Shown here in pieces: positions 1-15,671 of a stretch of 64,000 bases of DNA (position 1 is the first letter of the stretch; each line of letters opens with the position of its first letter). This DNA is from Methanobacteriota archaeon (GTDB lineage: Archaea > Thermoplasmatota > E2 > DHVEG-1). The notes under the pieces were generated by a model that saw only the letters and a program-made list of their open reading frames with translations, made no database searches and was not told the origin of the DNA. The stretch spans positions 256,001 through 320,000 of the forward strand of contig CAVYNH010000004.1 in the NCBI GenBank assembly GCA_963769885.1, given 5' to 3'. A program made the position numbers and the translations under genes.

Positions 1-522
1 CGACACCCGCAGCCGCTCAAACATCGCCTGGATCACGGTTAGGTTCCCGATATTCAATACAATATCCTGCACACCGACCTTCTTCAAAATCGTGAACGCC
101 AGCGCGATCAACTCCGCATGCGCCTCAGGCGTATCCGTCCCCAGCAGCTCACAGCCCGCCTGCCAGAACTCCCGATACCGCCCCTTCTGCGGACGGTCAT
201 ACCGGAAACAATTCCCAAAATAGAACAGCTTCAACGGCTTCGGCGCCATCTGCAGCCGCTCGATGTAACAGCGGATCACCGGCGCCGTCAACTCCGGACG
301 CAACGCCAGCTCACGGCCGCCCTTATCCACAAAATTATACAACTCATCAATGATCGACGCCCCGGACTTCGCCGTAAACACCTCCAGCGTCTCAAACGCC
401 GGCGTCTGAATCTCCCCATACCCAAACCCCCGGAACGTCTCCTCTACCTGCCGTTGCACAAACCGGCGTTTCAACATCTCCTCGGGGACAAAATCCCGGG
501 TACCTCGGGGAATCTGGTACAC
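1..522 (-). CDS. hisS: Histidyl-tRNA synthetase, N-terminal part (runs off the window start)
   Basis: Manual translation from GTG at 522: MYQIPRGTRDF...QTPAFETLEVFTAKSG...LALRPELTAP...FRYDRPQKGRYREFWQ, the class II HisRS motifs. Not in the ORF track because it is open at the edge. Confidence 0.95.
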   Translation of the reverse strand, partial: MYQIPRGTRDFVPEEMLKRRFVQRQVEETFRGFGYGEIQTPAFETLEVFTAKSGASIIDELYNFVDKGGRELALRPELTAPVIRCYIERLQMAPKPLKLFYFGNCFRYDRPQKGRYREFWQAGCELLGTDTPEAHAELIALAFTILKKVGVQDIVLNIGNLTVIQAMFERLRVS

Positions 523-668
523 ACTCCGCAGGTACCCCCGGGCTCATATAAAGAGGTTTCTCTCGGAACCACACAGGAGCCGCACCAGGCCCAGACGGCG
601 ACCACCACGGCTCATAACTATTATAAACCATGACATAATAAAAGAACCATAGGAGGCACCCGACCCCC

Positions 669-2384
669 ATGAAGACCACCACACTCTTCGCCATCGGAAT
701 CACTATCCTCTTCCTCACCCTCTCTGGCGCCGCCAGCGCCCAGACGCCGCTCACCACCCTCAACCCACCCCCAGCCCCCATCCGCCAGCCCGCCGAATTC
801 GACCCCATGACCGGCGTCCTCATCGCCTACCCCTTCGGCATCTCCTACCCCGTCATCAAAGAAATGGCGGAAAACGAAACCGTCTGCACCATCGTCAGCA
901 GCCTCGCCACCGAAACCACCGTCCTCAACCTCTACACCGCGAACGGCGTCAACACCGCCCACTGCACCTTCCTCATCGCCCCCACCGACTCTTACTGGAC
1001 CCGCGACTACGGCCCCTGGTTCATCTTCACCGGCGACAACCAACAAGGCATCATCGACTTCACCTACAACCGCCCCAGGCCCAACGACGACCAAATCCCC
1101 ACCAAATACGGCCTCAACCAAAGCATCCCCGTCTACAATATGCCGCTCACCACCACCGGCGGCAACTACATGACCGACGGCCAAGGCAACGCCATCTCCA
1201 CCACCCTCGTCTGGGAAGAAAACACGGGCCTCACCCACGACCAGATCAACCAGACCATGCACGACTACTGCGGCATCAACCGCTACATGGTCGTCCCGGA
1301 CGTCAACAGCGAATACATCGAACACGTCGACTGCTGGGGCAAATACCTCTCCCCGGACACTATCCTCATCCGCTCCGTCCCCCCCACCCACTCTCAATAC
1401 AACAAGATCGAGGCCGCAGTCGCCTACTTTAAAAACCAGACCAGCTGCTACGGCACTCCTTACCACGTTGCCCGCGTCTACACCCCCAACGATGAGCCCT
1501 ACACCAACTCGCTGATTCTGGACAATAAGGTCTACGTCCCCGTCATGGGCGACGCCTATGACGCTGCCGCCCTTCAATCCTACCGGGACGCGATGCCCGG
1601 CTACGAGGTCTTGGGGTTCACCGGGTTATCCGCACATCCCTGGGAGTCCACGGATGCGCTCCACTGCCGCGCCATGGGCATCACCGACCGTTACATGCTC
1701 TACATCCAGCACGTCCCACTACAGAACCAGACCGCGAGCGCGTCTGGGTTCCCGGTCACGGCAACCATCCATGCCTACAGCGGCCAGAGCCTCCTCCCAG
1801 GCTCCCCTAGCGTCGTCTACAAGGTCAACAACGGGTCCTGGAACACGGTCACAATGACCTCGACCGGCGGGGATGGCTACACCGCGACAATTCCTTCCCA
1901 GTCGGGAGGCAGCAAGATCTCGTATTATATCCATGCCGAGGACGGCTCAGGGCGGTCTGAGAACCACCCGTACATCGGTGCGGCTGGCGCCCATAGCTTC
2001 ATGGTCATCGGCGAGCCGAACCATCCCCCAGCGACGCCGGATCGGCCACAAGGAGCTAGCTCTGGCAAGCCGAAACAGCCCTATACTTATACAGCGATGA
2101 CCACGGACCCGGACAACGACACCTTGCTGTATAAATGGGACTGGGGCGACGGGACGACAAGTGACTGGCTCGGCCCCTCTGCATCAGGAGCGGTTGTGAA
2201 CGCCACGCATACCTGGGCGAAGAAGGGGACGTACTCGGTCAAGGTCATGGCCAAGGACAGCAACGGTCTGGAGAGCGACTGGTCCGAGCCTCTGGCGGTG
2301 ACGATGCCGTATTCGTGGCTTGACATGCTCCACGACCGGTTCCCGATTGTGTATTGGCTGCTTATCCACCTCTGTCGATGGTAG
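669..2384 (+). CDS. Secreted agmatine/peptidyl-arginine deiminase family protein with Ig-like and PKD domains
   Basis: Signal peptide; PAEF, WTRDYGP, GGN, HVD and LHC motifs; C-terminal PKD (YKWDWGDG...HTWAKKGTYSVKV). Confidence 0.88.
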   Translation: MKTTTLFAIGITILFLTLSGAASAQTPLTTLNPPPAPIRQPAEFDPMTGVLIAYPFGISYPVIKEMAENETVCTIVSSLATETTVLNLYTANGVNTAHCTFLIAPTDSYWTRDYGPWFIFTGDNQQGIIDFTYNRPRPNDDQIPTKYGLNQSIPVYNMPLTTTGGNYMTDGQGNAISTTLVWEENTGLTHDQINQTMHDYCGINRYMVVPDVNSEYIEHVDCWGKYLSPDTILIRSVPPTHSQYNKIEAAVAYFKNQTSCYGTPYHVARVYTPNDEPYTNSLILDNKVYVPVMGDAYDAAALQSYRDAMPGYEVLGFTGLSAHPWESTDALHCRAMGITDRYMLYIQHVPLQNQTASASGFPVTATIHAYSGQSLLPGSPSVVYKVNNGSWNTVTMTSTGGDGYTATIPSQSGGSKISYYIHAEDGSGRSENHPYIGAAGAHSFMVIGEPNHPPATPDRPQGASSGKPKQPYTYTAMTTDPDNDTLLYKWDWGDGTTSDWLGPSASGAVVNATHTWAKKGTYSVKVMAKDSNGLESDWSEPLAVTMPYSWLDMLHDRFPIVYWLLIHLCRW

Positions 2385-2471
2385 GCTGACCTTCTTTCTT
2401 TTTATTTTTTCAAGGAGAAACTTCTTGTAGGGGTAGCCGTTATCCTGTTGTCGTCCACAGGTGAATCTCAT

Positions 2472-3105
2472 ATGGAACTCTCCTCAACAGTGTACAGGTT
2501 TGCGACCGCGCGTCTGAACTTCTTCAAATGGCGGTTTGAGCTTGGGTTTGTACAAAAAAGTCTTGCTCGCTGTGGTTTTCGCGGGCATCACCGGTTTGAG
2601 TGCCCAGTTGCGGTTCTATTTACCAGGTTCGCCGGTTCCCTTGACTGCGCAGACCTGCGCGGTGTTAATCACTGCGGTGGTCCTGGGGAAATGGTGGGGC
2701 GGGATCAGTCAGAGCCTGTATCTGGTGATCGGCCTTGCCGGCGTCCCGTGGTTCGCGGGGTTCAACGGTGGGCTTTCGTACGTCTTCGGGGCGACCGGTG
2801 GGTATCTCATCGGGTTCGTGCTCGCGGCGTTCCTGTTAGGCTACCTGGTGGATTCACGGGTTGAAAACAGACGGTTTTCCTCGATGTTCGGTCTGATGCT
2901 GGTGATGAACTTCGTGGTCATCTACGGCTGCGGGCTGGTGTATCTGTACTTGTGGAGCCTGGCCCATGGGATGGCCGTTGACTTCGTCGGCTTGTTGATG
3001 ATGGGCGCGGTGCCGTTCGTGGTTGGCGACCTGGTGAAGATCGGGCTTGCCTCTGGGTTCTCCTCGAGTATCGCTCCGAAGGAGTCGTTCGGCGCCGAGG
3101 CATAA
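2472..3105 (+). CDS. bioY: BioY biotin transporter S component, with an apparent +1 frameshift in the A6 run at 2554-2559
   Basis: PGSPVPLTAQT, GLAGVPWFAG and GATGGYLIGF motifs. The N-terminus MELSS...FFKWRFELGFV lies in another frame and joins if one A is removed. Confidence 0.88.
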
Positions 3106-3115
3106 GTCGTCTTTT

Positions 3116-3313
3116 TTATCGCTTTTTTTCGTTTTCTTTGACTTTGTAGAGGGTGATAGAGCCGTCTGAAAGGACGACCCATCGGAGTTTGTTGCCGTTC
3201 TTGAGTCTGAGGAGCTCGACGACTTCCGCGGGGACGGTGACGCGGCGGCGTGATCCGCGGATGGTGATTGCGGTGTCCTTGATGCATTTGACGGCGTTGA
3301 GGTCTACTTTCAT
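3116..3313 (-). CDS. Small AbrB/MazE/SpoVT-type DNA-binding protein directly after pstB
   Basis: RVTVPAEVVELLRLKNGNKLRW swapped-hairpin pattern; GGAGG Shine-Dalgarno upstream. Confidence 0.7.
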   Translation of the reverse strand: MKVDLNAVKCIKDTAITIRGSRRRVTVPAEVVELLRLKNGNKLRWVVLSDGSITLYKVKENEKKR

Positions 3314-3334
3314 GGTTTCCCTCCTTTTCTTTGG

Positions 3335-4099
3335 TTAGCTAATCTCACCGCTGAGGTAGGCTTTCATCTCAGGGCTGGTGGGGTTGGTGAAGACGGCGTC
3401 GGCGGGGCCTTGTTCGACGACCATGCCGAAGTAGAGGAAGATGACGTAGTCGGCGACGCGTTTGGCCTGCCGTAGGGTGTGGGTGACGAGGATGACGGTG
3501 AATTCTTTTTTGAGTTTGAGGAGGAGTTTTTCGATTTGTTTGGCCGAGATTGGGTCGAGGGCGGAGGTGGGTTCGTCGCAGAGGATGACTTCGGGTTTGA
3601 CGGCGATGGCCCGGGCGAGGCAGAGGCGTTGTTGTTGGCCGACGGAGAGGCGGCTGGCGGGGTCGTGGAGGCGGTCTTTGACTTCGTTCCAGAGGCCGAC
3701 CTCTTGGAGGCAATGGTGGACGCCTTCTTCGATTTTGTGGGGGTTTTTGCCGTGGTGGATGCGCAGCCCGTAGGCGACATTCTCGAAGATGGACATGGGG
3801 AGGGGGTAGGGTTTTTGGCTGATGAGGCCCATTTTTTTTCTGATGTCGGGGACGTTGAGGCCGGAGGTCATGATGTCGATGCCGTCGACGACGATTTCGC
3901 CCTCGATTTTGACGTCGTCTTGGATGTCGAGGAGGCGGTTGAAGGATTTGAGCAGCGTGGTTTTACCGCAGCCGCTGGGGCCGATGATGGCGGTGAGTTG
4001 TTTGGCGGGGATCTCGATATTGATGTTTTTGAGGACGGGGGTGGTGTGGATGGTGACGCTGAGGGAGCGGGTTTCGATTTGGGTGGTTGATTTTGTCAT
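3335..4099 (-). CDS. pstB: Phosphate ABC transporter ATPase
   Basis: GPSGCGKT, LSVGQQQRLCLARA, DEPTSALDP. Confidence 0.95.
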   Translation of the reverse strand: MTKSTTQIETRSLSVTIHTTPVLKNINIEIPAKQLTAIIGPSGCGKTTLLKSFNRLLDIQDDVKIEGEIVVDGIDIMTSGLNVPDIRKKMGLISQKPYPLPMSIFENVAYGLRIHHGKNPHKIEEGVHHCLQEVGLWNEVKDRLHDPASRLSVGQQQRLCLARAIAVKPEVILCDEPTSALDPISAKQIEKLLLKLKKEFTVILVTHTLRQAKRVADYVIFLYFGMVVEQGPADAVFTNPTSPEMKAYLSGEIS

Positions 4100-4115
4100 G
4101 GGGTCTCCTTGTTGT

Positions 4116-4967
4116 TTATTTGATGATGTATTTGGATGATTTTTTTGTGAGGTAGCGGGTGAGGATGCTGATGGCGAGGACGATGAGGAGGAGGACGAAG
4201 GCGACGGCGTAGGCTTTGTTTTGGACGGCTTTGTCTGGCATGCCGGCGAGGTTGAGGATGATGGTGGGGAGGGCGGCGGTCTGGTCGAAGAGGGAGGTGG
4301 GGAGGTAGTTGGAGTCGCCGACGGTGAGGAGGATGGAGGCGGCGTCGCCGATGCCGCGGCCGAAGCCGAGGAGGATGCCGGCGACGATGCCGGGCATGGC
4401 CTGGCGGCGGACGACGCGGATGGCGGTTTCGAAGCGGGTGCTGCCGAGGCTGTAGGCGCTTTCTTTGAGGCCGTGGGGGACGACTTTGATGGATTCGTCG
4501 ATGCTGCGGGTGATGATGGGGATTTCGAGGAGGGTGAGGGCGATGATGCCGAAGAGGACGGAGCCGTGGTTGATGCCGATGGCGAAGCTGATGGTGATGG
4601 CGAAGACGCCGTAGATGATGGAGGGGATGCCCCACATGAGGTCGAGGATGATGCGGATGGCGCTGGAGGCGGTGGTGCCGAGGAAGTCTTTTTGGAGGTA
4701 TATGGCGATGAAGATGCTGAAGAGGAAGGCGAGGATGGTGGCGGGGACGACGAGGAGGAGGCTGCCGGTGATGGCGTTGAGGAAGCCGCCGCCTGGCCCG
4801 AGGTAGAAGGTGCCGGCGGTGGTTTCGGTGAGCATTTGGAGGGAGAGGCTGGCGGCGCCGTTGAAGATAATGACGCCGACGATGAGGACGAGGCTGCCGA
4901 TGACGATGAAGACGGAGGCGATCATGAGGGCGAGGAAGATTTTTTCTTCGAGGGTGCGTCGGTTCAG
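4116..4967 (-). CDS. pstA: Phosphate ABC transporter permease PstA (probable CTG start at 4967; first ATG at 4925)
   Basis: GIPSIIYG and ESAYSLGSTRFE EAA loop. The ORF-track start at 5495 is a shadow inside pstC. Confidence 0.9.
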   Translation of the reverse strand: MNRRTLEEKIFLALMIASVFIVIGSLVLIVGVIIFNGAASLSLQMLTETTAGTFYLGPGGGFLNAITGSLLLVVPATILAFLFSIFIAIYLQKDFLGTTASSAIRIILDLMWGIPSIIYGVFAITISFAIGINHGSVLFGIIALTLLEIPIITRSIDESIKVVPHGLKESAYSLGSTRFETAIRVVRRQAMPGIVAGILLGFGRGIGDAASILLTVGDSNYLPTSLFDQTAALPTIILNLAGMPDKAVQNKAYAVAFVLLLIVLAISILTRYLTKKSSKYIIK

Positions 4968-6022
4968 TATGCCCACCTCTTGCTGGTGTGCCGGAGGACG
5001 AGGAAGGCGAGGAGGTTGAAGATGAGGACGACGAGGAAGAGGATGAGGGCGACGAAGATGAGGGCGGAGGCGAGGAGGGGGATGGAGCTGACTTCGGTGT
5101 AGTTGTTGGCGATGAGGCTGGCGAGGGTCTGGCCTGGGCCGAAGAGGCTGCTGGGGATGAGTTCTTGGTTGCCGATGACCATGCTGACGGCGATGGTTTC
5201 GCCGAAGGCTCTGCCGAAGCCGAGGAAGATGGCGGAGAGGATCCCGGGTCCGGAGGCGCGGAAGAGGACTTTTTTGACGGTCTCCCATTTGGTGGCGCCC
5301 AGTGAGAGGCTGGCTTCTTTGAGGGCGATGGGGATCGAGCTGATGGATTCGATGCAGAGGCTGATGATGATGGGGAAGACCATGATGGATAGGATCAGGG
5401 AGGCAGCAAAGAGGCCGAAGCCGCTGCTGGTGTGGACGCCGAAGGCGGGGGCGATGGTGTCGCGGACGACGGGGACGAAGACGAGGAGGGCGCATAGGCC
5501 GAAGACGACGGAGGGGACGCCGGCGAGGACGTCGATGAAGGGGCGGATGGTGTTGCGGAAGCGGCTGGGGGCGTATTCGGCGATGTAGATGGCGGTGAGG
5601 AGGGAGACGGGGACGGCGATGAGCATGGAGATGGCGGTGACGATGAGGGTGTCGATGATGACGGCGAAGAGGCCGAACTGGCCGGAGAAGGGTTTCCAGG
5701 TGGAGGAGAAGAGGATGTCGGTGATGGAGCGGCCTTCGAGGACGGTGAAGGAGCCGTTGATGAGGATGGCGATGAGGAAGATGAAGATGGCGAGGGCGGC
5801 GAGGGTGATGGTCATCATGAGGCGGGTGCCCAGGATGTCGAAGAGCCGGCGGCTGATCCTGATGAAGTCGAAGAAGATGATGACAAGGGAGACGGCGAGA
5901 AGGGCGAGGAAGATGATGAGATTATTGAGAAGGAAAAGGGAGAGGAGGGCGAGGATAAAGATCAACAAGGCAGAGAAGAAGGATCTCTTCTTGACGACGC
6001 TGGCTGCCTTGTTGAAGCGCAT
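4964..6022 (-). CDS. pstC: Phosphate ABC transporter permease PstC
   Basis: LAGVPSVVFG, EASLSLGATKWET, GRAFGETIAV. Confidence 0.95.
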   Translation of the reverse strand: MRFNKAASVVKKRSFFSALLIFILALLSLFLLNNLIIFLALLAVSLVIIFFDFIRISRRLFDILGTRLMMTITLAALAIFIFLIAILINGSFTVLEGRSITDILFSSTWKPFSGQFGLFAVIIDTLIVTAISMLIAVPVSLLTAIYIAEYAPSRFRNTIRPFIDVLAGVPSVVFGLCALLVFVPVVRDTIAPAFGVHTSSGFGLFAASLILSIMVFPIIISLCIESISSIPIALKEASLSLGATKWETVKKVLFRASGPGILSAIFLGFGRAFGETIAVSMVIGNQELIPSSLFGPGQTLASLIANNYTEVSSIPLLASALIFVALILFLVVLIFNLLAFLVLRHTSKRWAY

Positions 6023-6041
6023 GAGCGAGGTTGTGGTGTTG

Positions 6042-7046
6042 TTATGTTCCGAGTTTGCTGAGCTGGTCGGCGATGATGGCGTCGGGGACTGGGGCGTAGC
6101 CGTTGGTGATGGTGAGTTGTTGGCCTTCGGTTAGGATCCAGCGGACGAAGTCGCGGGTTGCGCCTGTGAAGTTGTTGAGGGTGACGAGATAGACGAGTCT
6201 GGCGGGTGGGGCGTGGAGGTTGCCGTTGATCTCGGCGTTGACGATGTCGGTGCGGGTGGTGTAGATGGTTTCGTTGGCGTCGAGTTTGCCGTTGCCGTTG
6301 AAGTCGATGGGGACGACGACGAGGCCGGTCTTGGGGCGTAGGGTGGAGTTGGAGTAGATGTAGTTGACGTTGCTGTAGCCGATGCCCAATTGGTCGCTGA
6401 TGATGGAGGCTGACATGCTGTCGTCTCCTTTGACCTTGGTGACGGTTTCGACGGTGGGGAAATCGTCTTGGGTGTAGTTGCCCAGGAACTTCGCCCAGGT
6501 TTCTGCGGCGCCGCAGACGTCGGAACGGGAATAGACCTTGATGACGTCGGTGACGGTTGTGTCGTTGACGAGCGTGCCCCAGGTGGTGATGTTGCGGGTG
6601 ATGAAGACGTCGCGGAACTGTTGCTGGGTGAGGCCGGTGGTGGTGATCTTGTCTTTGACGGGGTTCGCGTCGTTGATGGTTGGGAGGACTGCGTCTTTGA
6701 CTACGGCAACGAAGACGATGCCTTTGTCTGCTTCAGCGGTGGTGACGTCTCGGGAGACCATGCCGAGGTTGACGGTGCCTGCGAGGGCGTCGGACATGCC
6801 TTTTCCGGCGCCGCCGGATGAGACGTCGATGCGGATGTTGGTGTGGTTCTTTTGGTAGGTTTGGGCCCAGACGACCATCATCGGGTATAGGCTGTAGGCG
6901 CCTGAGACCTTGATGGTGTTGGTGGTTTGTTGGCTGGTGCAGCCGCTGAAGCCGACGACGACGAGGGTGGTGGCGAGGAGAAGCGTTGTGACGGCGAGCA
7001 GGGTTTTGCGCTCAGGCCTGTGGGTTCCTTTCCTTTCTTTCATCAT
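6042..7046 (-). CDS. pstS: Phosphate ABC transporter substrate-binding lipoprotein
   Basis: Lipobox FSGC; SGAYSLYP, GGAGKG and GMVSR motifs; first gene of the pst operon. Confidence 0.92.
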   Translation of the reverse strand: MMKERKGTHRPERKTLLAVTTLLLATTLVVVGFSGCTSQQTTNTIKVSGAYSLYPMMVVWAQTYQKNHTNIRIDVSSGGAGKGMSDALAGTVNLGMVSRDVTTAEADKGIVFVAVVKDAVLPTINDANPVKDKITTTGLTQQQFRDVFITRNITTWGTLVNDTTVTDVIKVYSRSDVCGAAETWAKFLGNYTQDDFPTVETVTKVKGDDSMSASIISDQLGIGYSNVNYIYSNSTLRPKTGLVVVPIDFNGNGKLDANETIYTTRTDIVNAEINGNLHAPPARLVYLVTLNNFTGATRDFVRWILTEGQQLTITNGYAPVPDAIIADQLSKLGT

Positions 7047-7118
7047 GAATCTGTCTCCTTTTTTGGTACTGGTAAGCGTGACATTGCCTACCCCATGGCC
7101 GTACCATAGGCGCCCGGG

Positions 7119-7178
7119 TATTTAAAAGTATTGGTAAATATTGGCAAAATGCCAAAATTGGAAATTTATTGGAAAACA
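7119..7178 (-). promoter_or_regulatory. pstS promoter (TATA-like TTTAAATA) with upstream ATTGGNAAW x4 repeats and a TTGGCA-N3-TGCCAA palindrome
   Basis: TTGG cores at 7131, 7141, 7158 and 7169; palindrome at 7141-7155. Confidence 0.55.
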
Positions 7179-7294
7179 GCCATGAAAATCAGCGTATTCG
7201 AGCCCAATCCTGTGACAACGGGGTTTTCGCGGAAAAAAAGCAAAAAACAGAAAAACAGCGAAAGGGGGAAAAAGAAAGGGAAAAAAGGCGCCGG

Positions 7295-7702
7295 CTATTT
7301 GAGCCAGACGCGTATCTGCGGGCGGTTCTGTTTCTCCTCGACCTTGGTCGCGATCTTCTCTTCGCGGGCCAGCCAGCCGAGCGCGCTGAACGCCTCGCTG
7401 ACGTCGATGCGGGCCATCCGGGCAAGCGTTTGAACATCAATCTCGCCCTTCTGGGACAGGACCCCCCAGATCTTGCCGGCGTCCGTGCCGATCTTCGTGG
7501 TCAGGTTCGTGTCCCCGAGCTTGTACACGGTGCCGTTCTTACAGATCTTGTTCTCGCGGGCCAGCCAGCCGATCGCAGCCTGCAGCTCGCGCTCATCCAG
7601 GAGCGTCATCGTCAGGAGCTTCGTCTCTGACAGCGGTCCCTTGCAGTTCAGTGTTTCCCATACCTTTCCAGCATGCTCTCCAAATTGAGTCACAGGTGTC
7701 AT
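7295..7702 (-). CDS. Tandem winged-helix (DUF2582-like) protein
   Basis: Two copies of G.xAGK(V/I)W..L...A(I/L)GWLARE.KI; alternative GTG start at 7723. Confidence 0.8.
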   Translation of the reverse strand: MTPVTQFGEHAGKVWETLNCKGPLSETKLLTMTLLDERELQAAIGWLARENKICKNGTVYKLGDTNLTTKIGTDAGKIWGVLSQKGEIDVQTLARMARIDVSEAFSALGWLAREEKIATKVEEKQNRPQIRVWLK

Positions 7703-8047
7703 ACTCTCGAATCCCACCTTCACTTATCGCTAGAAGGTATAGCCTACAAGGTTATTAGTGTTATGATTCTGCGAAGCACCGCGGAAAAAAAATTGAATAG
7801 ACAACGCTGACGCACCCCTATTATTATAGTACTGTGCGGCGCAATCGCCCGTAGGACTCGGATAAGACTCACTTCGCGTTCGGGTCGCTAGCTGAAGCAC
7901 GTGAAGGAAGACCGCCGAGTGAGGAGGCAGGAATAACAAGAGAGGGAGATACTAAATGGTTACTGTGACACACAAGGCAGTGCAATACCAGAAGGCGACA
8001 AAGGTTCGAACTGCATAAGAATCACATGATTATGCACCGTCATCTAA

Positions 8048-8290
8048 TCAAACAAAAAAATAAAAACTACTCACAATCACCAAAAGTAATCCAAATCCAA
8101 GCCAAATCCCAGCAAGTACCCAAAATCCAACTGGATTCTCTTCTCTATTCAGCGATAATACTTGACTTGAGTACCGAGGAACGAAACGAAGTTCACCCTT
8201 TCTAATGTAATAAATACCGAACGATATTAATCCTATCCCCAAAACAAAGAATATCAGAATTTTTTCTACGCCTACACCTGCTGACATCAC
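8048..8290 (-). CDS. Small two-TM hypothetical protein (AT-rich)
   Basis: Two hydrophobic helices around REENPVGFW. Confidence 0.55.
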   Translation of the reverse strand: MMSAGVGVEKILIFFVLGIGLISFGIYYIRKGELRFVPRYSSQVLSLNREENPVGFWVLAGIWLGFGLLLVIVSSFYFFV

Positions 8291-8364
8291 AGGATCAATG
8301 AAAGAATCCGCTGGTTGGTAATAACATTTTTCGAGGTTTGAGTTATCCTCTATTGCTCAAGGAG

Positions 8365-8427
8365 ACCTGTTAGTGACCACAGGACATTCCCCACAGATAA
8401 GTCCCCACATCATTTTTCCACAGAATC
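8365..8427. mobile_element. Relic terminus of a related IS6-like element abutting the TSD
   Basis: 8386-8427 matches the right end 15609-15650 at 28/42 positions without gaps; shared ACCTGTTA (8365 and 15592); CCACA repeated about every 14 bp. Confidence 0.6.
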
Positions 8428-8435
8428 CACCCCAA
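8428..8435. repeat. Left target-site duplication CACCCCAA
   Basis: Identical 8-mer at 15651-15658; both copies directly flank the TIRs. Confidence 0.9.
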
Positions 8436-8476
8436 GGTTCTGTGTAAAACCGTAGTGGGAATTTTGTAGTGGGAAA
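8436..8476 (+). repeat. Left terminal inverted repeat
   Basis: GGTTCTGTGTAAAACCGTAGTGGGAATTTTGTAGTGGGAAA; 36/41 identical to the reverse complement of 15610-15650. Confidence 0.9.
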
Positions 8477-8546
8477 ATAGGGTTGGTGTTTCTACAGATA
8501 TGTTTTTAAAGAAAAAATCAATATTAAAACATCTTTAAGAGATGAA

Positions 8547-8867
8547 ATGATGGGTTTCTTCAAGAAGAAAGCAGAGGAGAAAACATCTCATATCAAGAAA
8601 ATTGAAACTGATGATAAAGAATTTGAAGATGTCACATTAGAAAAAAATATTGATGCAGATATCGGATATACGAAACGTGATCTTTACATTGTTCCTGGTG
8701 TTGATGAAGTTGATATCCCAAGGTCAAAGGTAAGGCAGGAGTTTTTAACCAGACCTACGAATTATAGATGTACTAAGTGTAAGAGTATCCTCTATAATAC
8801 GAAACTTGATGGTAGACATTATTATTGCCCAATCTGTAATGTGCAATGGGATAAGGACGATTTATAA
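8547..8867 (+). CDS. Hypothetical protein with C-terminal zinc ribbon
   Basis: CTKC...CPIC. Confidence 0.65.
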   Translation: MMGFFKKKAEEKTSHIKKIETDDKEFEDVTLEKNIDADIGYTKRDLYIVPGVDEVDIPRSKVRQEFLTRPTNYRCTKCKSILYNTKLDGRHYYCPICNVQWDKDDL

Positions 8868-8980
8868 TGCCAATTGATTTGCATAAAACCTTAGTTAAAA
8901 CTGTTTTACTGTTTTTCTGATACATTGGATTTGTGTATTTTAGGTTTGCAAACTATTTAAAAACTTAAAGTGTTTATTCT

Positions 8981-9048
8981 TATGCCACCCCTATCAATCT
9001 CACTCATGTGTTTCGCCAACTATGAGTCTTTTTGATGGGGGTGGTATA
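8981..9048 (+). ncRNA. Candidate small hairpin RNA inside the transposon
   Basis: 17-bp stem whose only two non-Watson-Crick pairs are G-U on the + strand; inner 6-bp stem; TTTAAAAA about 25 nt upstream; T-run downstream. Confidence 0.45.
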
Positions 9049-9127
9049 TATAACCAATTTTTCTAAAAACAATATATAAAAGAAAAAGAAAAACTATATT
9101 AGATTAGATTAAATTTCTTATTCTAAA

Positions 9128-9889
9128 ATGCCGATTGCTCTAAGTGTATTTGGATTAGACGAAATAGAAGAGAAAATATTTTTAAATGAAACAAAAAAAA
9201 CCTTCTCTTTATCTGATTTCCAATCAAACCTAGATTCAATTGCGGAGATCAAAGATATCCAGCCAGCTACCACAACTTTCACTCGAACATCCTATAATCC
9301 TCAAACAAAACGAGCAAAGTATTATGTCGAGCATTGGACCGATACAAATAAAGAAATCATTCGTGCTTTCCTGAAAGACCCGGACGAATCAATTCTCTAT
9401 GCTGACCAACTTTTAAAACCATTAGCAACTCATAAATTTGAATATGGATTTCAAACCTTAGTTAAACTTAATATCATGATTGATTTCGTGGACAAAGAGA
9501 TTTTTGTTTTTATGAATAAAAGAATCGCTAAACAGATAATAAATCGTTTGGAGGCAGTAGGAGGTTTAAAATCTCTCCCTATTTTCTTGAACTTAAAAAA
9601 CATAAGTTAAAGTGCAGTTGTTCAAGATGTTAATATTGTGTGGGAAGATGAACTGGATGTTAATGTTAAAAAAATCGGATGGATAGGGGTTCAAGTTCAT
9701 AAAGATAAGAGAGTAGATTTAAGCAAAGCAACTGCAATAAAAGTCGAAATAATAAGCAATCAAAAAATCATCCCTGATGTTTTTATTTCTGATGATGCTA
9801 GATTAAGTTCATTGTCCCCTAATGTGGGCACAAGTGAAATGGTCCAGATTTATAAGATATTAAAGGAGAAGACCAAACAATTAAGTTAG
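9128..9889 (+). pseudogene. About 253-codon hypothetical gene interrupted by one in-frame TAA (9608-9610)
   Basis: ORFs 9128-9610 and 9638-9889 are in the same frame: ...KNIS*SAVVQDVNIVWEDEL... Confidence 0.65.
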
Positions 9890-10537
9890 TAGTTTTTTAA
9901 CAATTTCTTGAACCATTGATAATCCTTTAAAGTTAATGCTAACTGTGTTTTCCATTATTATTTTTATTTTAGTTTTAGATTCTTGGTCCTCCATATTGAT
10001 TATGTAATTCTCAATGACAAAGCCCTTTGGTTTTTTTATGCGAATTAATTTCCATTGAAAAGGAAGTTCTAGATCGAGTTTGCAATTCAACAAAGAACGA
10101 AAAATCTTTTTATTGATAAGACCTTCAAAATCAATTATTATCTCACTTATTTTTTTTGACAAATCTCTTAGTCCGGATTCCATTCTTTCAATTTCTACAT
10201 AGACCTCTTTGATAGATACTTTAAAAACAATAACAGAATAATGGCTATTGGAAAAATCAAGTTTTATTTCATTGTCAATTTTTTTTGTTCCTTCACCAAA
10301 CATTGAATGTACTTCATTTTTTATAATATTAAAATCAGTCTCTGTTTCAAAAGTAAAAATCAACCTAGCATTCGCTCCTTTATTTGTAACGATAGCCCAT
10401 TTTTTTCTTAGTCTATTTAAAAGATCATATTTGTCTTCTATAAGTAAACCTATTATCGAACCCACACAAGTAGTAATGATTAGAATAAAGCCGACATATG
10501 TATTAACAAACTCTACTATTGAATTAAAGTCAGTCAG
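9881..10537 (-). CDS. Hypothetical protein with N-terminal TM helix (probable CTG start at 10537; GTG at 10465)
   Basis: Frame stays open upstream of 10465 and completes a TM segment (YVGFILIITTCVGSIIGLLI); GGTGA SD; overlaps the upstream stop as CTGA. Confidence 0.65.
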   Translation of the reverse strand: MTDFNSIVEFVNTYVGFILIITTCVGSIIGLLIEDKYDLLNRLRKKWAIVTNKGANARLIFTFETETDFNIIKNEVHSMFGEGTKKIDNEIKLDFSNSHYSVIVFKVSIKEVYVEIERMESGLRDLSKKISEIIIDFEGLINKKIFRSLLNCKLDLELPFQWKLIRIKKPKGFVIENYIINMEDQESKTKIKIIMENTVSINFKGLSMVQEIVKKLLT

Positions 10538-10734
10538 CCTTTTTCACCTTCGTTATTTTCCTTGTTTTGTGCTTTTTCAAGGAGTTCGACTTTTTGTAAT
10601 TCGATAAGTCGTAGTCGTAATGTCTCGTGAACAAATTCGCTTGAATCTCTATAAAGAAACCTTTTGTTATTTACAATTTCATTGATTTTTTTATGAATTT
10701 CAATATCTAAGTTTAGGGTCTTATATTTCGCCAT
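10534..10734 (-). CDS. Ribbon-helix-helix (CopG/Arc-like) regulator, divergent from the transposase
   Basis: YKTLNLD...KKINEIV...YRDSSEFVHETLR pattern. Confidence 0.7.
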   Translation of the reverse strand: MAKYKTLNLDIEIHKKINEIVNNKRFLYRDSSEFVHETLRLRLIELQKVELLEKAQNKENNEGEKG

Positions 10735-10814
10735 AACACATATATGGCTTATATATATGTTATACTATTTAAGTATATTTAGATACCTTTAAATAGAGAT
10801 TGTAATATGTAATA

Positions 10815-11999
10815 TTGGCGAAATACATGAGTGAACGAATAGACATTAAAGAAATGGTGAATGCTCGAAGAGCACGAGGCATGATTCTCCTTGAAAACGG
10901 ATTTGAACCAAAGGAAATTAACTCGAAGACATGGATTGTCCCAAGCCAAACAGGGAACGGCACATATACGGTTCATTATGCGGATGATGAACGGACCATT
11001 TGGAGATGCACCTGCAAAGACTTTGAAATTCGAGGGCTCCCATGTAAACATATCAATGCCGTGAAAATCTGGAAAAATCTCCATGATAGATTCGAGCAAC
11101 TAAACCTTAAAGTGAAACAAAGCATCAGCCTTGGAAACACTGAGACTCAAGGATGCAAATTCTGCCATTCATCAGACATCACAAGATACGGCGTGAAAAA
11201 CGGGAAGCAAGTCTATTTCTGTAAATCATGCAATCGAAGATTCGTGAACAATATTGATTTTGAAAACATGAAGTACAACCCTAAGATAATCGCCTTGACG
11301 CTTGATCTCTATTTCAAAGGGATAAGCCTTCGGAAAATCAGCCACCACCTCAAGCAGTTCTATAATCTGAATATCAGCCACAAGTCCGTGTACAATTGGA
11401 TAGAGAAGTACGTAGGAATCATGAATGAGTATGTGAACAGTATTCAACCTGATATTGGGGGCGTGTGGCATACTGATGAGATGATGGTGAAGGTGGATGG
11501 TTCCTGGGAGTATCTCTGGAATGTAATTGATGAAAGCACTCGATTCCAGCTTGCATCTATCGTTTCAAAGGAACGTCACGTTAGGGATGCACGCATGGTG
11601 TTCCAGAAGGCGAAGAAGAATGCTGGAGGAAGGAAACCAAAGTACTTAGTCACGGATGGACTATTAGCATATCGTGAGGCCGTCAATAAGGAGTTTAATA
11701 CGAATCACGGCAATATTGAGCATCTTTGGAATGTAGGGATACAACATCACCCGAACAACAACCATGTAGAACGGTTACATGGCACTATCCGCCAACGGGA
11801 AAAAGTCATACGAGGAATGAAGATAGAAGAGACTCCGATTATCGAGGGACATAGGTTATACTATAATTTCATCAAGCCCCATGAGGCGTTGAACGGAAAG
11901 ACACCATCAGAAGAAGCAGGGATAACCATCGAAGGGGAAGATAAATGGCTTACTCTCATGAAGAAATCAATTCAATATCAGAAGGCGAATAAACAATAA
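10815..11999 (+). CDS. IS6-family DDE transposase with N-terminal SWIM zinc finger and zinc ribbon
   Basis: CTC...CKH (SWIM), CKFC...CKSC, HTH (SLRKISHHL...SVYNWI), WHTDE...LVTDG...NNHVERLH. Confidence 0.9.
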   Translation: MAKYMSERIDIKEMVNARRARGMILLENGFEPKEINSKTWIVPSQTGNGTYTVHYADDERTIWRCTCKDFEIRGLPCKHINAVKIWKNLHDRFEQLNLKVKQSISLGNTETQGCKFCHSSDITRYGVKNGKQVYFCKSCNRRFVNNIDFENMKYNPKIIALTLDLYFKGISLRKISHHLKQFYNLNISHKSVYNWIEKYVGIMNEYVNSIQPDIGGVWHTDEMMVKVDGSWEYLWNVIDESTRFQLASIVSKERHVRDARMVFQKAKKNAGGRKPKYLVTDGLLAYREAVNKEFNTNHGNIEHLWNVGIQHHPNNNHVERLHGTIRQREKVIRGMKIEETPIIEGHRLYYNFIKPHEALNGKTPSEEAGITIEGEDKWLTLMKKSIQYQKANKQ

Positions 12000-12059
12000 C
12001 CCCTTCTTTTTTTCTTTTGCCAAAATTAAAGAAGAATCGAACAATATCGAATATCAGTT

Positions 12060-14885
12060 ATGGAAGATGACCTTGTTAAACAAAAAGTACAATCACTCAT
12101 AGATGATTTCAGAAGTAATTATAACGAATACAAGAAAGAATCCGAAGCTAGTATAGAAACAAAACTAATTGAACCACTCTTCAAATGTTTAGGTTGGACT
12201 GAAAAAGATTTTAGCAAACGAGAACGAACACAACGAGAAGGCAAACTAGGTTTTGCGGATTACACGTTCTACATAAAAGATAAGAAAGTATTTTTCCTCG
12301 AAGTAAAAAAGATTGGAGTGCCGTTAGACAAAGAGGCAGATGCACAAGTCGTATCTTATGCTCTATCAAAATCTGTTTCCATCGCAATCTCGACGAATTT
12401 CGAACAGCTCAAAGTGTTTTGTGTCGAAGAAGAGAATTTAGATAAAAGAATGATTTCAATCTTCAAAACACCAGAAGATTACCTTGACAAATTCTATGAT
12501 TTGATTTTACTTTCTAAGTCTAGTTTTGAACAAGATCTCTTAATGAAAAAAGCTGAAGACCTTAATCTATTAAAAAAACGGATAACCATAGATAAACCAC
12601 TTCTTGACAACCTAATTCTTATCCGTAAGTTCATTGCTGATGATATAGAGAAAAAATATTCAGGGAAATATCAACCCAATGAAAAAGAAGAGATCATACA
12701 AAGAATTATCGACAGACTGATTTTCATCAGGAAATGCGAGGACACAGGAATTAACCCAGAGAACCTGACCCTAAAAGATGTCCTCACAGTAACTGATGAA
12801 AAAGCATACAAAAAATTAAAAGAGATATTCGAAGAATACAATACTCGATACAATAGTGGATTATTCGCCATCGATAAAGACAATGAATGCGATAGGATAC
12901 AGATAACTGGAGATATAATTAAAAAACTCATTGGATATCTCTACATTTCCAGAAACGGAGGATACCACTATAATTTCGAATGGATACCTGCCGATATTCT
13001 TGGACAAGTCTATGAACAATACCTTGGAAAGATACTAGAACAAACAAAATCAGGTAAAGCCAAACTAACAAATGGACAGGTACATCGAAAGGAACAAGGC
13101 ATTTATTATACGCCTACCTTTGTCGTTGATTATATCGTAAAAACTACAGTTGGAGAAGTGTTGAAGAATAAAAAAGTAAAAGTAAAGGAATTAAAAATAT
13201 TGGACCCTGCTTGTGGCTCGGGTTCTTTCTTAATCAAAGCTTTTGATTATATCTACCGAAATCAATCAACCGGGGATTCTCAACAATATAGAATTGACGG
13301 TCAAGGGCAGTATTCTGTTAAAACAGAGATACTGAAAAATAATCTGTACGGAGTGGATTTAGATAATAAAGCAATAGAAATAACCAAGTTAAATTTACTC
13401 TTAAAAGCAGCGGAGAAAGGAAGACGTTTACCTGTAGAGATTGACATCAACATAAGACAAGGAAATTCATTAATCGACGACGAATCAATTGCAGGATTGA
13501 ATGCTTTTAAGTGGACCGACAAAACAAAAAATAAGGACAACAGGAAATTTGACGTAGTTATTGGAAATCCGCCTTATATCAAGGTAGAACAAATTAAAAA
13601 AGAAGAAAAAGAATGGATTTATCAAAATTTTGAAAACGCTACTGGAAGAACTGATTTATACGTACTTTTTTTAGAGAAAGCATTAGAGCTAACAAAGGAC
13701 GACGGCCTAATCTCTTTCATTATTCCAAGTATATGGATGAAAGCGAAATATGGAGAAAAACTAAGAGAGAATTTGGTAAGAAACTATCAGATAAAATCAA
13801 TCATCGACTTCGGCGATCTTAAGGTCTTTGAAAGTGTCACCACTTATCCATGTATCATTTTGATTAAAAAGAAGAAACCAACTGGAAACGACACCATCAT
13901 CTATTATAAAGTTCCTAGTTTGAATGAATCAATAATTAACAATCTTGAAAATGCTATAAAAAAGGACTCTTGGATGATTAGGCAAAAAGAATTTGATTGG
14001 AACTTTGCAAATCCACAGGTAAAAAAAATATTCGATAAATTAAACAAATCATCAAAAATCAGGCTAAGTGACCTAAGAGACCAAATTTATGAAGGTTTGA
14101 TTACCGGAGATAACAAGGCTTTTTTTGTTGATAGAGAGACAGTAGAAACAAAAAATCTCGAAAGGGAATTGTTAAAACCTGTTCCAAAAGGAAAAAACAT
14201 CAGACGTTTTTCAATTCGGTGGGAAAAAGAATATGTCATATATCCTTACAAACAGAATATGCTTAAGACTGAACCTGTTAATATCAAAGAATATCCAAAC
14301 GTAAATTCTTACCTTGCTGAATTTGAAAAAAAGCTCACAGCTAGAACCTCAATTAAAGGGACTAACAAAAAATGGTTTGAACATGTTCGTCCTAGAGAAA
14401 AATGGTGGTTTGAAAAACAAAAAATCTTAACTCCAAACCTATCATCAAGTAACAACTTTGCTATTGACGAAGGACGTTCAAATGAATATTTTTATGTTGA
14501 CCATGATGCATATGCGATTACGCTAAAAACAAATAGCAGAGAAGATTTATTGTTTATTTGTGGGCTTCTTAATTCATCTCTTATAGAGTTTTACATTAAG
14601 CAGATAAGTCCTATGTTCTCAGGTGGATATTACAAATATCATACTCAATATCTTGATCCAATCCCGATAATTAAACCATCTAAAAAAGAAGAAATCAGAT
14701 TCGTGAAATTAGTCGAGAGGATTATTCTTCTGAATAAAACATTAACAAAGATTGGCGATAAAAAGACTGCCGAAAGTGCAAAACTCGAAGAAGAAATTAA
14801 GAAAGTTGATAATCAAATCGATGAACTTGTTTTTGACCTCTACCATTTGACCAAAGACGAAAAGGAGATTATTAAAAAATCTTAA
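12060..14885 (+). CDS. Type IIG restriction-modification fusion (nuclease, N6-adenine MTase and TRD)
   Basis: N-terminal ADY...EVKK nuclease; GIYYTP, LDPACGSGSFL and GNPPY; TaqI-C-like C-terminus. Confidence 0.9.
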   Translation: MEDDLVKQKVQSLIDDFRSNYNEYKKESEASIETKLIEPLFKCLGWTEKDFSKRERTQREGKLGFADYTFYIKDKKVFFLEVKKIGVPLDKEADAQVVSYALSKSVSIAISTNFEQLKVFCVEEENLDKRMISIFKTPEDYLDKFYDLILLSKSSFEQDLLMKKAEDLNLLKKRITIDKPLLDNLILIRKFIADDIEKKYSGKYQPNEKEEIIQRIIDRLIFIRKCEDTGINPENLTLKDVLTVTDEKAYKKLKEIFEEYNTRYNSGLFAIDKDNECDRIQITGDIIKKLIGYLYISRNGGYHYNFEWIPADILGQVYEQYLGKILEQTKSGKAKLTNGQVHRKEQGIYYTPTFVVDYIVKTTVGEVLKNKKVKVKELKILDPACGSGSFLIKAFDYIYRNQSTGDSQQYRIDGQGQYSVKTEILKNNLYGVDLDNKAIEITKLNLLLKAAEKGRRLPVEIDINIRQGNSLIDDESIAGLNAFKWTDKTKNKDNRKFDVVIGNPPYIKVEQIKKEEKEWIYQNFENATGRTDLYVLFLEKALELTKDDGLISFIIPSIWMKAKYGEKLRENLVRNYQIKSIIDFGDLKVFESVTTYPCIILIKKKKPTGNDTIIYYKVPSLNESIINNLENAIKKDSWMIRQKEFDWNFANPQVKKIFDKLNKSSKIRLSDLRDQIYEGLITGDNKAFFVDRETVETKNLERELLKPVPKGKNIRRFSIRWEKEYVIYPYKQNMLKTEPVNIKEYPNVNSYLAEFEKKLTARTSIKGTNKKWFEHVRPREKWWFEKQKILTPNLSSSNNFAIDEGRSNEYFYVDHDAYAITLKTNSREDLLFICGLLNSSLIEFYIKQISPMFSGGYYKYHTQYLDPIPIIKPSKKEEIRFVKLVERIILLNKTLTKIGDKKTAESAKLEEEIKKVDNQIDELVFDLYHLTKDEKEIIKKS

Positions 14886-15430
14886 AGACTAAATATTTTA
14901 ATCTCTTTTATTTTTTCATTGACATTTTCAGGAGAGCAACATGGTAAATATTTTTCTGCATTCTTACAAAAAATCGAATCAGTAGAAACTAAGAGGTCAC
15001 AACCTACTTCTAATGCTGTTGCGAGATGAATCGAATCAGAAGCAGAAAGATTAGACTCTTTGCAAATCTTTATTGCCTTTTCGATGGCTACTTCATCTAA
15101 CCAATAAAATTGTACAAATTTATATGGAGTGAAAAACCTGTTTTTGATTTTTGTATAAATTAATTCTAGGGTCTTATCTGATAAATCTTTATCATCCCTT
15201 TTTCTTAAAATTTTTTTAAATGTCCATCCTTCTTTGATTTTTTCATAGATAAATTCATTATCCTTCTGCACACTTAAAGCTTCCATTAATGCAAATTGAG
15301 ATGTAATACAGTCCCATCCATTATTTTTTATTTCCTCTATCAGGTCAATGGAAGGAGTATGTATGCCTTGGACAATGTCAACAATGATGTTTGTATCTAT
15401 GTAAATCTTGGGTTTTATGAATACTTCCAT
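14882..15430 (-). CDS. PIN-domain (VapC-like) nuclease
   Basis: IYIDTNI...EA...DSIHLATA...LVSTD acidic PIN motifs. Confidence 0.85.
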   Translation of the reverse strand: MEVFIKPKIYIDTNIIVDIVQGIHTPSIDLIEEIKNNGWDCITSQFALMEALSVQKDNEFIYEKIKEGWTFKKILRKRDDKDLSDKTLELIYTKIKNRFFTPYKFVQFYWLDEVAIEKAIKICKESNLSASDSIHLATALEVGCDLLVSTDSIFCKNAEKYLPCCSPENVNEKIKEIKIFSL

Positions 15431-15432
15431 AA

Positions 15433-15591
15433 TTAAAATCTTGGCCTTCTTTTTTTGACATGTCTTGATGGTTTCCTTCTTCTACTGAAAAAAACTTTAT
15501 TGGAACTTATAGATTGACCATCCATAGTCTCCTCTGCCTTGCCTTCTGAATAATTAATCTCTGATTTATCATTTTCCTTTTTGTCGGCCAT
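15433..15591 (-). CDS. 52-aa ORF directly upstream of the PIN gene (possible antitoxin)
   Basis: MADKKENDKSEINYSEGKAEETMDGQSISSNKVFFSRRRKPSRHVKKRRPRF*, ending 2 nt before the PIN ATG. Confidence 0.5.
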   Translation of the reverse strand: MADKKENDKSEINYSEGKAEETMDGQSISSNKVFFSRRRKPSRHVKKRRPRF

Positions 15592-15609
15592 ACCTGTTAC
15601 CACTCTTGA

Positions 15610-15650
15610 TTTCCCACTACTAAATTCCCACTACTCCCTTACACAGAACC
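15610..15650 (-). repeat. Right terminal inverted repeat
   Basis: Reverse complement reads GGTTCTGTGTAAGGGAGTAGTGGGAATTTAGTAGTGGGAAA. Confidence 0.9.
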
Positions 15651-15658
15651 CACCCCAA
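15651..15658. repeat. Right target-site duplication CACCCCAA
   Basis: Identical to 8428-8435. Confidence 0.9.
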
Positions 15659-15671
15659 CAAGGTTTATATA
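15657..15671 (+). promoter_or_regulatory. BRE/TATA promoter of the ribosomal protein operon
   Basis: Purine-rich AACAAGG followed by TTTATATA (15664-15671), about 200 nt before rpl3. Confidence 0.65.

Follow-up and report, generated by a model that had tools for sequence, protein, structure and literature searches.

The 64,000-nucleotide stretch analysed here, referred to below as the window, covers positions 256,001 to 320,000 of contig CAVYNH010000004.1 in a metagenome-assembled genome (MAG) of an uncultured Methanobacteriota archaeon (phylum Thermoplasmatota in the GTDB lineage; GCA_963769885.1), and contains at positions 8436-15650 an insert which, with a probability of roughly 0.85 for the reading as a whole, promoter targeting included, is an intact unit transposon of a large archaeal branch of the IS6 family. 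In ISfinder terms it would be classed as a tIS, that is, an insertion sequence (IS) with passenger genes. The IS6 family itself is known; what is new is the choice of insertion site, a single precise position a short way upstream of the TATA box in very strong host promoters, for which no earlier description was found, a full-text literature search having returned no account of TATA- or promoter-directed insertion of archaeal transposons. Between the target-site duplication and the TATA box downstream of it, which belongs to a highly expressed gene, there are exactly 5 nt. An earlier note on this DNA had recognized the transposon, its ends and part of its cargo; the fixed spacing to the TATA box, the stacking of elements and the nature of the left flank, which is the end of an older degraded element, were not in it.

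The insert measures 7,215 bp and has a GC content of 33.3%, as compared with 55.5% in the 2-kb flanks and about 59% in the local profile. It is located within a 392-kb contig of a 2.09-Mb, seven-contig assembly (G000), of which contigs C1, C4 and C6 are mentioned below, the window being G000:C4:256001-320000. The 41-bp terminal inverted repeats proposed in the earlier note are borne out by the end sequences themselves, whose outermost 41 nt agree at 36 of 41 positions, and a repeat search extends them to 52 nt at 81% match. Both ends open with GGTTCTGTGTAA, which is also the start of the consensus of 75 distinct family ends, and each consists of a 12-nt tip beginning GGTTCTGT, two copies of GTAGTGGGAA placed 14 bp apart, and a third, weaker site. 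This agrees with the long, multi-site ends described previously, and the family consensus keeps the tip together with three TGGGAA/TGGT sites; over the 75 ends, a 14-nt shift gives 3.9 mismatches, versus about 10 at other shifts. The terminal repeats start with GG and hold an internal cTGTt motif, as given for IS6 members in PMC7986276. Directly outside them, the perfect 8-bp duplication claimed earlier, CACCCCAA, is exact on both sides and has the length known for the IS6 family. Closer inverted repeats hugging the transposase gene, which the earlier note had named as a finding that would count against this outline, were looked for and not found: the repeat search detected none beside that gene, and the family-type end motif is present in the element only as the outer pair. 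No RNA genes were detected with Rfam between window positions 7000 and 17000.

Three more end pairs, each with its own exact 8-bp duplication, are found in the same genome (C6:779104-783583, C1:835-6232, and C1:13219-18612). The C6 copy is 4,480 bp long and encodes an intact transposase at 78% identity. The two C1 copies lie in a 19.4-kb palindrome (C1:1-19446, with positions 1-9682 matching 19446-9767 at 98.9% around an 84-bp centre) which reaches the contig start, carries the start of a thermosome gene and one element per arm, and reflects a fold-back of the assembly or else a genuine inverted duplication. Because both are arms of one palindrome, they were counted as one, which gives at least two further independent elements in the genome, or three with the window copy. 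These copies have nothing in common beyond their ends and, at about 75% nucleotide identity, the transposase gene; the cargo is different, and in the C1 copy comprises a methylase-Mrr fusion, a TGT-like protein and an 8xMP membrane protein. At C1:6241, 8 bp past the first C1 element, a further element end starts, and a lone family-type end, with its tip and 14-bp spaced repeats and no detected partner, is present outside the window at G000:C4:113567.

The three independent insertions share one layout with respect to the host promoter. In the window, the right duplication is followed after 5 nt by the TATA box TTTATATA, with the genes for the ribosomal proteins L3 and L4 about 200 nt downstream; the C6 element shows the same layout before TTTAAATA and then the 16S rRNA gene, and the C1 element before the thermosome gene. 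For the wider family, elements were delimited by the end motif and an exact duplication in 99 related contigs and in this genome, the related loci bearing L-numbers. For the survey of TATA boxes, elements were detected by their ends alone and the flanks were scored afterwards, a TATA match being defined as TTTAWATA with at most one mismatch. Such a match starts at outward offset +14 in 16 of the 70 non-redundant ends, and in 0-2 of them at every other offset from 1 to 37; by reading the flanks, the TATA box was placed at +14 in 14 of 17 distinct duplication-verified elements. The downstream genes that can be named include those for the thermosome (at least eight loci, with differing 8-mers duplicated), Hsp70, rpS8e, rpL44e, a PEP-utilising enzyme (PPDK), and a PKD-domain protein. 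The 5-nt spacing is also found in clades at 35-45% identity, some of them with 9-bp duplications, and in a Nitrosopumilaceae element. Orientation is variable, the transposase gene running toward the TATA box in nine elements and away from it in five. Two pairs of loci act as natural replicates: in L097 and L116, whose host flanks are 97-98% identical, different elements have taken the same 8 bp before rpS8e in opposite orientation, and the same has happened in L115 and L129 before the thermosome gene. Exact TTTAWATA octamers number 313 in this genome and, despite this, all three independent insertions lie at top-expressed genes, which hints at a cue beyond the octamer, although selection could give the same picture.

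The landing pad appears to be used repeatedly. At 11 distinct junctions, two opposed element ends are separated by exactly 8 bp identical to the flanking duplication; in a clade with 9-bp duplications, three elements stand in a row before an Hsp70 gene. Since the duplication restores the promoter-proximal 8 bp, an insertion leaves the landing pad in place, and elements can line up one after another with these 8 bp as the repeated spacer. In the window, the older neighbour is a degraded element of the same family with a remnant of the transposase C terminus; its right end, in which the tip is mutated and the repeats show the 14-bp spacing, is separated from the intact element by exactly 8 bp, so that the left duplication copy also serves as the spacer between the two. 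Of the two, the degraded copy lies at the greater distance from the promoter, as expected if the newest arrival always adjoins the TATA box. The site without either element can be seen in a genome of the same genus (G167), where the right flank matches at 88% identity from window position 15660 onward and the left flank matches up to about 7771, with about 200 bp between the two matches as opposed to 7.9 kb here (window positions 7772-15659, approximately, are absent). G167 keeps the TATA box and leader and has, in front of them, one counterpart only of the duplicated 8-mer, in diverged form. The earlier expectation that an empty site would collapse to one 8-mer is in this way supported as regards the single copy; G167 being a related species and not an allele, it falls short of exact proof.

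Several points weigh against promoter-directed insertion. The whole reading was inferred from the contigs of MAGs and metagenomes. Three of the 17 verified elements lack a canonical TATA box at +14, the TATA-like motif of L107 and L128 being displaced outward by about 2 nt and L089 having only a weak match at +14, and the 16 hits at that offset are not fully independent, since related hosts contribute many of the target sites through orthologous thermosome promoters. Identity among the three copies in this genome is at most about 80%, so that they give no sign of recent transposition in it. A role in targeting for the SWIM finger found at the N terminus of the transposase is unsupported: among relatives with another N-terminus, eight regions gave only two delimitable elements, one of which (L186) is 5 nt from a TATA-like box and the other (L188) is not. 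Moreover, all the data come from fixed insertions in assembled genomes, in which survivorship bias could inflate the apparent specificity. According to an improbable alternative, insertion is essentially random or merely AT-biased, and selection retains only those copies that fall into the gap next to a core promoter, on its upstream side, where they do no harm. A spot upstream of an intact transcription factor B recognition element (BRE) and TATA box is plausibly neutral, and a second, unrelated transposon type, with tips (G/A)CAGTAGTTCCGAA and a DDE_Tnp_1 transposase, is found in the same gaps (L083:11745-18095, with such tips also in L091, L103, L109, L129 and L151). In L151, 13 nt separate its tip from the thermosome TATA box downstream, and the tip coincides exactly with the outer edge of the 8 bp duplicated by the IS6-like elements. 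Pads shared in this manner fit either a cue from a host complex or selection for a harmless site. What selection would hardly produce is the single-nucleotide precision, with 16 of 70 ends at +14 and 0-2 at any neighbouring offset, given that intergenic DNA offers many equally harmless positions, nor would it easily explain that different elements took the identical 8 bp in near-identical hosts; and the duplicated 8-mers are not themselves AT-rich, contrary to a simple AT bias.

Targeting of inverted repeats is known from IS911 and IS30, and the 11 junctions of abutted ends, including that at window positions 8427/8436, could similarly mean that new copies are drawn to the ends of resident elements, the 8-bp spacing then reflecting end-targeting and not a promoter landmark. 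This is less probable still: lone elements with ordinary host DNA on their far side (C6, L116, L120, and L142) are nevertheless 5 nt from a TATA box, therefore a resident end is not needed, and the first element of each stack must have reached the promoter unaided. End-targeting may supplement the landmark, but could not replace it. The remaining explanation, by which chimeric assembly or binning, and no real insertion in the chromosome, gave rise to the low-GC block, finds some ground in the 22-point GC gap to the flanks, in the origin of the genome as a MAG, and in the suspicious 19.4-kb palindrome with which C1 opens. It is nonetheless very improbable, as the exact 8-bp duplication is found at both junctions inside one 392-kb contig, collinearity with G167 extends through the host sequence to the left and to the right of the block, and the same architecture appears at two other loci of this genome and in dozens of other assemblies.

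Insertion directed to the promoter can be pictured as a series of steps. The transposase would probably bind the 12-nt tip and the three subterminal sites, with their 14-bp spacing, at each end, and the 8-bp duplications show that the target is cut with an 8-bp stagger. Insertion places the duplication 5 nt upstream of the TATA box of a strong promoter and leaves the BRE/TATA core intact, and the host gene would stay expressed because its promoter sequence is unbroken. The promoter-proximal duplication then re-creates the pad, allowing later elements to reuse the same 8 bp in the order dup-E1-dup-E2-dup-TATA, an arrangement which the rpl3 operon of the window, with a degraded older element followed by an intact one, illustrates. 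The cargo, here a Type IIG restriction-modification (R-M) enzyme and a PIN-domain protein, and mostly R-M or other defence genes in relatives, would probably favour retention, and strong promoters might in this way become small defence islands. As for the cue, the transposase may recognise the sequence of the TATA box directly, or else it might be steered by the archaeal pre-initiation complex, reading TBP and TFB on the BRE/TATA, or the DNA bend that they cause, and integrating at a fixed distance upstream; this second possibility is a tentative proposal, less probable than not. If true, it would account for the concentration of insertions at the strongest promoters of the cell, those of rRNA, ribosomal-protein, thermosome and Hsp70 genes.

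The single, central transposase gene encodes a protein of IS6 type, as claimed in the earlier note: it scores 134.2 bits against the NCBIfam IS6 equivalog NF033587, above the cut-off of 125, and matches Pfam DDE_Tnp_IS240 (PF13610) at 9.1e-21. The extra N-terminal SWIM finger also holds up (Pfam SWIM, 2.5e-7). In the domain layout, the SWIM finger (residues 51-84) is followed by a four-cysteine Zn ribbon of the IS1/IS1595 type (residues 114-145) and then by the DDE_Tnp_IS240 core, with D221, D281 and E319 as DDE residues. Across 46 relatives at 30-75% identity, the invariant positions include C65, C67, C77 and H79 of the SWIM finger, C114, C117, C136 and C139 of the ribbon, and D221, D239, D281 and E319. 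The AlphaFold (AF2) model is confident, with a mean pLDDT of 90, and a fold search with it gave the transposase of the IS256-family element ISCth4 as the top match, followed by retroviral integrases; among the matches listed there were generic RNase-H-fold transposases and integrases and no IS6-family transposase structure. The best annotated plasmid-borne relatives are the 'long' IS6 transposases of the ISCpe7 type from Clostridia, at 32% identity over residues 146-377, which is the helix-turn-helix (HTH)-DDE part only; the SWIM and Zn-ribbon region lies outside this similarity.

Known members of the IS6/IS26 group, such as IS26, IS257 and IS240, are about 0.7-1.8 kb long, have ends of 15-20 bp, carry the transposase gene only, and move cargo as paired copies, according to the reviews PMC7986276 and PMC6807381. 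The present element resembles them in its DDE core, which fits PF13610 and NF033587, in its GG..CTGT tips and in its 8-bp duplication. Unlike them, it is 7.2 kb long (3.2-8.1 kb in relatives), holds about eight passenger open reading frames (ORFs) within one pair of 52-nt multi-site ends, and has a SWIM finger and a Zn ribbon in its transposase; the small size, short ends and lack of passengers of a typical IS6 element are not seen here. The passengers lie on both arms of the one transposase gene, inside a single IS-type end pair, in keeping with the unit-transposon architecture proposed earlier and with assignment as a tIS. A fixed promoter-proximal target is not mentioned in the available parts of those two IS6 reviews. 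Zn-finger extensions are noted there only for Clostridial clades, and a single passenger-carrying IS6 member, ISDsp3, is given. The element is like the long Zn-finger IS6 of Clostridia (the ISCpe7 group, clades h and i in PMC7986276) in its N-terminal Zn-finger extension, and like ISDsp3, the one known IS6 tIS, in carrying passengers. However, the ISCpe7 group is bacterial and 1.2-1.8 kb in size, and ISDsp3 has one hypothetical gene and is known from a single copy. Defence cargo, multi-site ends and promoter targeting are not described for these Clostridial clades or ISDsp3 in the passages of PMC7986276 consulted.

The resemblance to Mu and Tn7 seen in the earlier note stands as far as the layout of the ends is concerned, since several repeats of the transposase-binding type are present per end and passengers lie inside one end pair. 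Tn7 uses a fixed safe site. In contrast to both systems, a TnsB/MuA-type transposase and an AAA+ target selector (TnsC/MuB) were seen in no element, the duplication is of 8 and not 5 bp, and TATA boxes as a class serve as the target instead of one att site; also, the elements stack, so that there is no sign of target immunity, and the family does not belong with Tn7 or Mu. A different parallel is provided by retroelements that dock at promoters occupied by transcription factors, among them Ty3, which integrates at Pol III start sites via TFIIIB (TBP plus the TFIIB-like Brf1). By analogy at the level of outcome, the two share a fixed distance from a core promoter element, reuse of sites and an intact host gene. 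Unlike Ty3, a long terminal repeat (LTR) retrotransposon, the present element is an archaeal DDE DNA transposon, and contact with archaeal TBP/TFB is a hypothesis.

The transposase is present in 40 of 401 sampled genomes of the phylum, and its relatives amount to more than 500 close clusters in a collection at 90% identity and to 409 clusters at E<=1e-30 in a library at 50% identity. As the earlier note had recommended, homologous elements could be delimited by their inverted repeats and duplications and their cargo catalogued. The 18 delimited elements, of 3.2-8.1 kb, have one transposase gene each, all carry cargo, and none is of plain IS size. The duplication is exact and 8 bp long in 18 of 18, as in all end pairs of this genome, and reaches 9 bp in more distant clades. 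Together they hold 97 ORFs, 18 of them transposases, and the cargo consists mostly of DNA methylases and restriction enzymes: N6_Mtase was matched seven times, Eco57I five times, N6_N4_Mtase, PIN and 8xMP three times each, Shedu SduA was found as well, and there were single cases of MT-A70, ThaI, BglII, Type ISP, GmrSD, and a Type I S subunit. Genes outside defence are carried too, namely TrkH, an amino-acid permease and a Na/H exchanger. The view of a little-characterised archaeal family that mobilises anti-virus systems is therefore upheld by the 409 clusters and the R-M-dominated cargo of the 18 elements, and has to be relaxed for the transporters. No ATPase or second transposition gene was found among the 25 Pfam families listed, of 33 matched, for these 97 ORFs. 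Members of the IS6/IS26 family transpose through cointegrates, or replicon fusions, and move cargo by directly repeated pairs; here, only single, duplication-flanked copies were observed, and Pfam reveals no resolvase gene in the cargo. A generic finder of inverted repeats and duplications, applied to 14 more distant loci, returned mostly nothing, many of the transposase hits being close to contig ends.

Some of the related loci are of interest in their own right. A 4.4-kb member whose 22-nt ends are perfect and whose 8-bp duplication is separated from a TATA-like box by 5 nt is present in a Nitrosopumilaceae chromosome (OZ242376.1, L101:7408-11847); its transposase was considered as SWIM-less, which was rejected on finding that the SWIM part is split from the Zn-DDE part by an inserted gene (398 aa, transposase-like in appearance). 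A 6,961-bp element on a contig labelled Ignavibacteriaceae bacterium (CAZQSR010000113.1, L091) is flanked by a promoter like the archaeal thermosome promoter of other loci; the contig is probably archaeal, its place in a bacterial MAG being due to a binning error. The middle element of the three-element stack before Hsp70 (L057:3885-7069, in genome G066) has matching ends and a 9-bp duplication; it shows no transposase match at E<=1e-10 and has a single 964-aa ORF without Pfam match, and is possibly a non-autonomous cargo element moved in trans.

The features of the element and its surroundings are collected in Table 1. The Type IIG R-M passenger named in the earlier note was recovered in full length with a PADLOC match to REase_MTase_IIG and appears, from its sequence, to combine nuclease, gamma-class N6-methylase and specificity domains in one polypeptide, as befits this type, with a weak N-terminal HSDR_N_2 match. 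The zinc-ribbon hypothetical was likewise found again, whereas the PIN pair turned out to be a single PIN gene and the ribbon-helix-helix and transmembrane labels have no hidden Markov model (HMM) support. The PIN protein is likely a toxin or nuclease, and the 56-aa ORF directly upstream could possibly, by inference, be its antitoxin partner. The 66-aa ORF, which has no profile match in Pfam or NCBIfam, is possibly a regulator. A module of three genes, encoding proteins of 160, 83 and 194 aa, is a candidate for a new defence or addiction system: the same three adjacent genes are found in L119:3147-4468 (43-63% identity) and L087:5009-6327 (31-36%), at least three different elements in all. The module has no match in Pfam, PADLOC or NCBIfam, and a protein-atlas search with the 194-aa protein gave no usable match. 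Just before it in the left arm, at window positions 9000-9019, 20 nt from the start of the transposase gene (10815-10834, its first codons) recur in inverted orientation at 95% match, which may be the scar of a cargo swap with an oppositely oriented element.

Table 1. Features of the transposon at window positions 8436-15650 and of its immediate surroundings (positions refer to the window)
Feature	Position	Strand	Remarks
Degraded older element, same family	7772..8427	+	Transposase C-terminal remnant at about 7861-7971; right end 8370-8427
Left duplication copy CACCCCAA	8428..8435	.	Doubles as spacer to the older relic end on the left
Left inverted end	8436..8487	+	Tip 8436-8447; repeats GTAGTGGGAA 8452-8461 and 8466-8475; weaker third site 8482-8487; 14-bp spacing
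106-aa protein	8547..8867	+	C-terminal CxxC...CxxC zinc ribbon; only sub-threshold profile matches
Three-gene module	9128-9610, 9638-9889, 9881-10465	+, +, -	Recurs as a unit in other elements
66-aa ORF	10534..10734	-	Divergent from the transposase gene; homologues 5' of the transposase gene in L097 and L113
Transposase, 394 aa	10815..11999	+	SWIM finger, Zn ribbon, HTH, DDE core; profile matches, alignment of 46 relatives, AF2 model
Type IIG restriction-modification enzyme (predicted), 941 aa	12060..14885	+	PADLOC REase_MTase_IIG 8.5e-125, residues 7-937; Pfam Eco57I, N6_Mtase, TaqI_C
PIN-domain protein, 182 aa	14882..15430	-	PF01850 at 7.6e-11
56-aa ORF	15433..15603	-	Directly upstream of the PIN gene; no HMM match
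Right inverted end	15599..15650	-	Mirrors the left end: tip 15639-15650; repeats 15625-15634 and 15611-15620; weaker third site 15599-15604
Right duplication copy CACCCCAA	15651..15658	.	
Host TATA box TTTATATA	15664..15671	+	5 nt past the duplication; promoter of the ribosomal-protein operon L3 (15868-16860), L4 (16864-17625)

The abundance of this passenger-carrying family in archaea differs from what was reported in a 2019 survey of archaeal mobile elements, where passenger-carrying DNA transposons were not detected in archaea (PMC6563490), and from the 2021 IS6 review (PMC7986276), in which ISDsp3 is the only such IS6 member listed. For those working with archaeal MAGs, low-GC blocks before rRNA, ribosomal-protein and chaperonin genes are perhaps real stacked transposons and not mis-assemblies. 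Docking with base-pair precision upstream of the TATA box offers a simple, testable system for the choice of a safe site by a DNA transposase. Should TBP/TFB prove to be the cue, the family would represent a compact, single-protein, promoter-directed integration system and, among prokaryotic DNA transposons, the equivalent of Ty3 with its docking on TFIIIB, and the DDE_Tnp_1-type transposon on the same pads would be a case of convergent use of a host cue. For the archaea themselves, the elements suggest how genes for restriction and other kinds of defence may spread and accumulate in their genomes.

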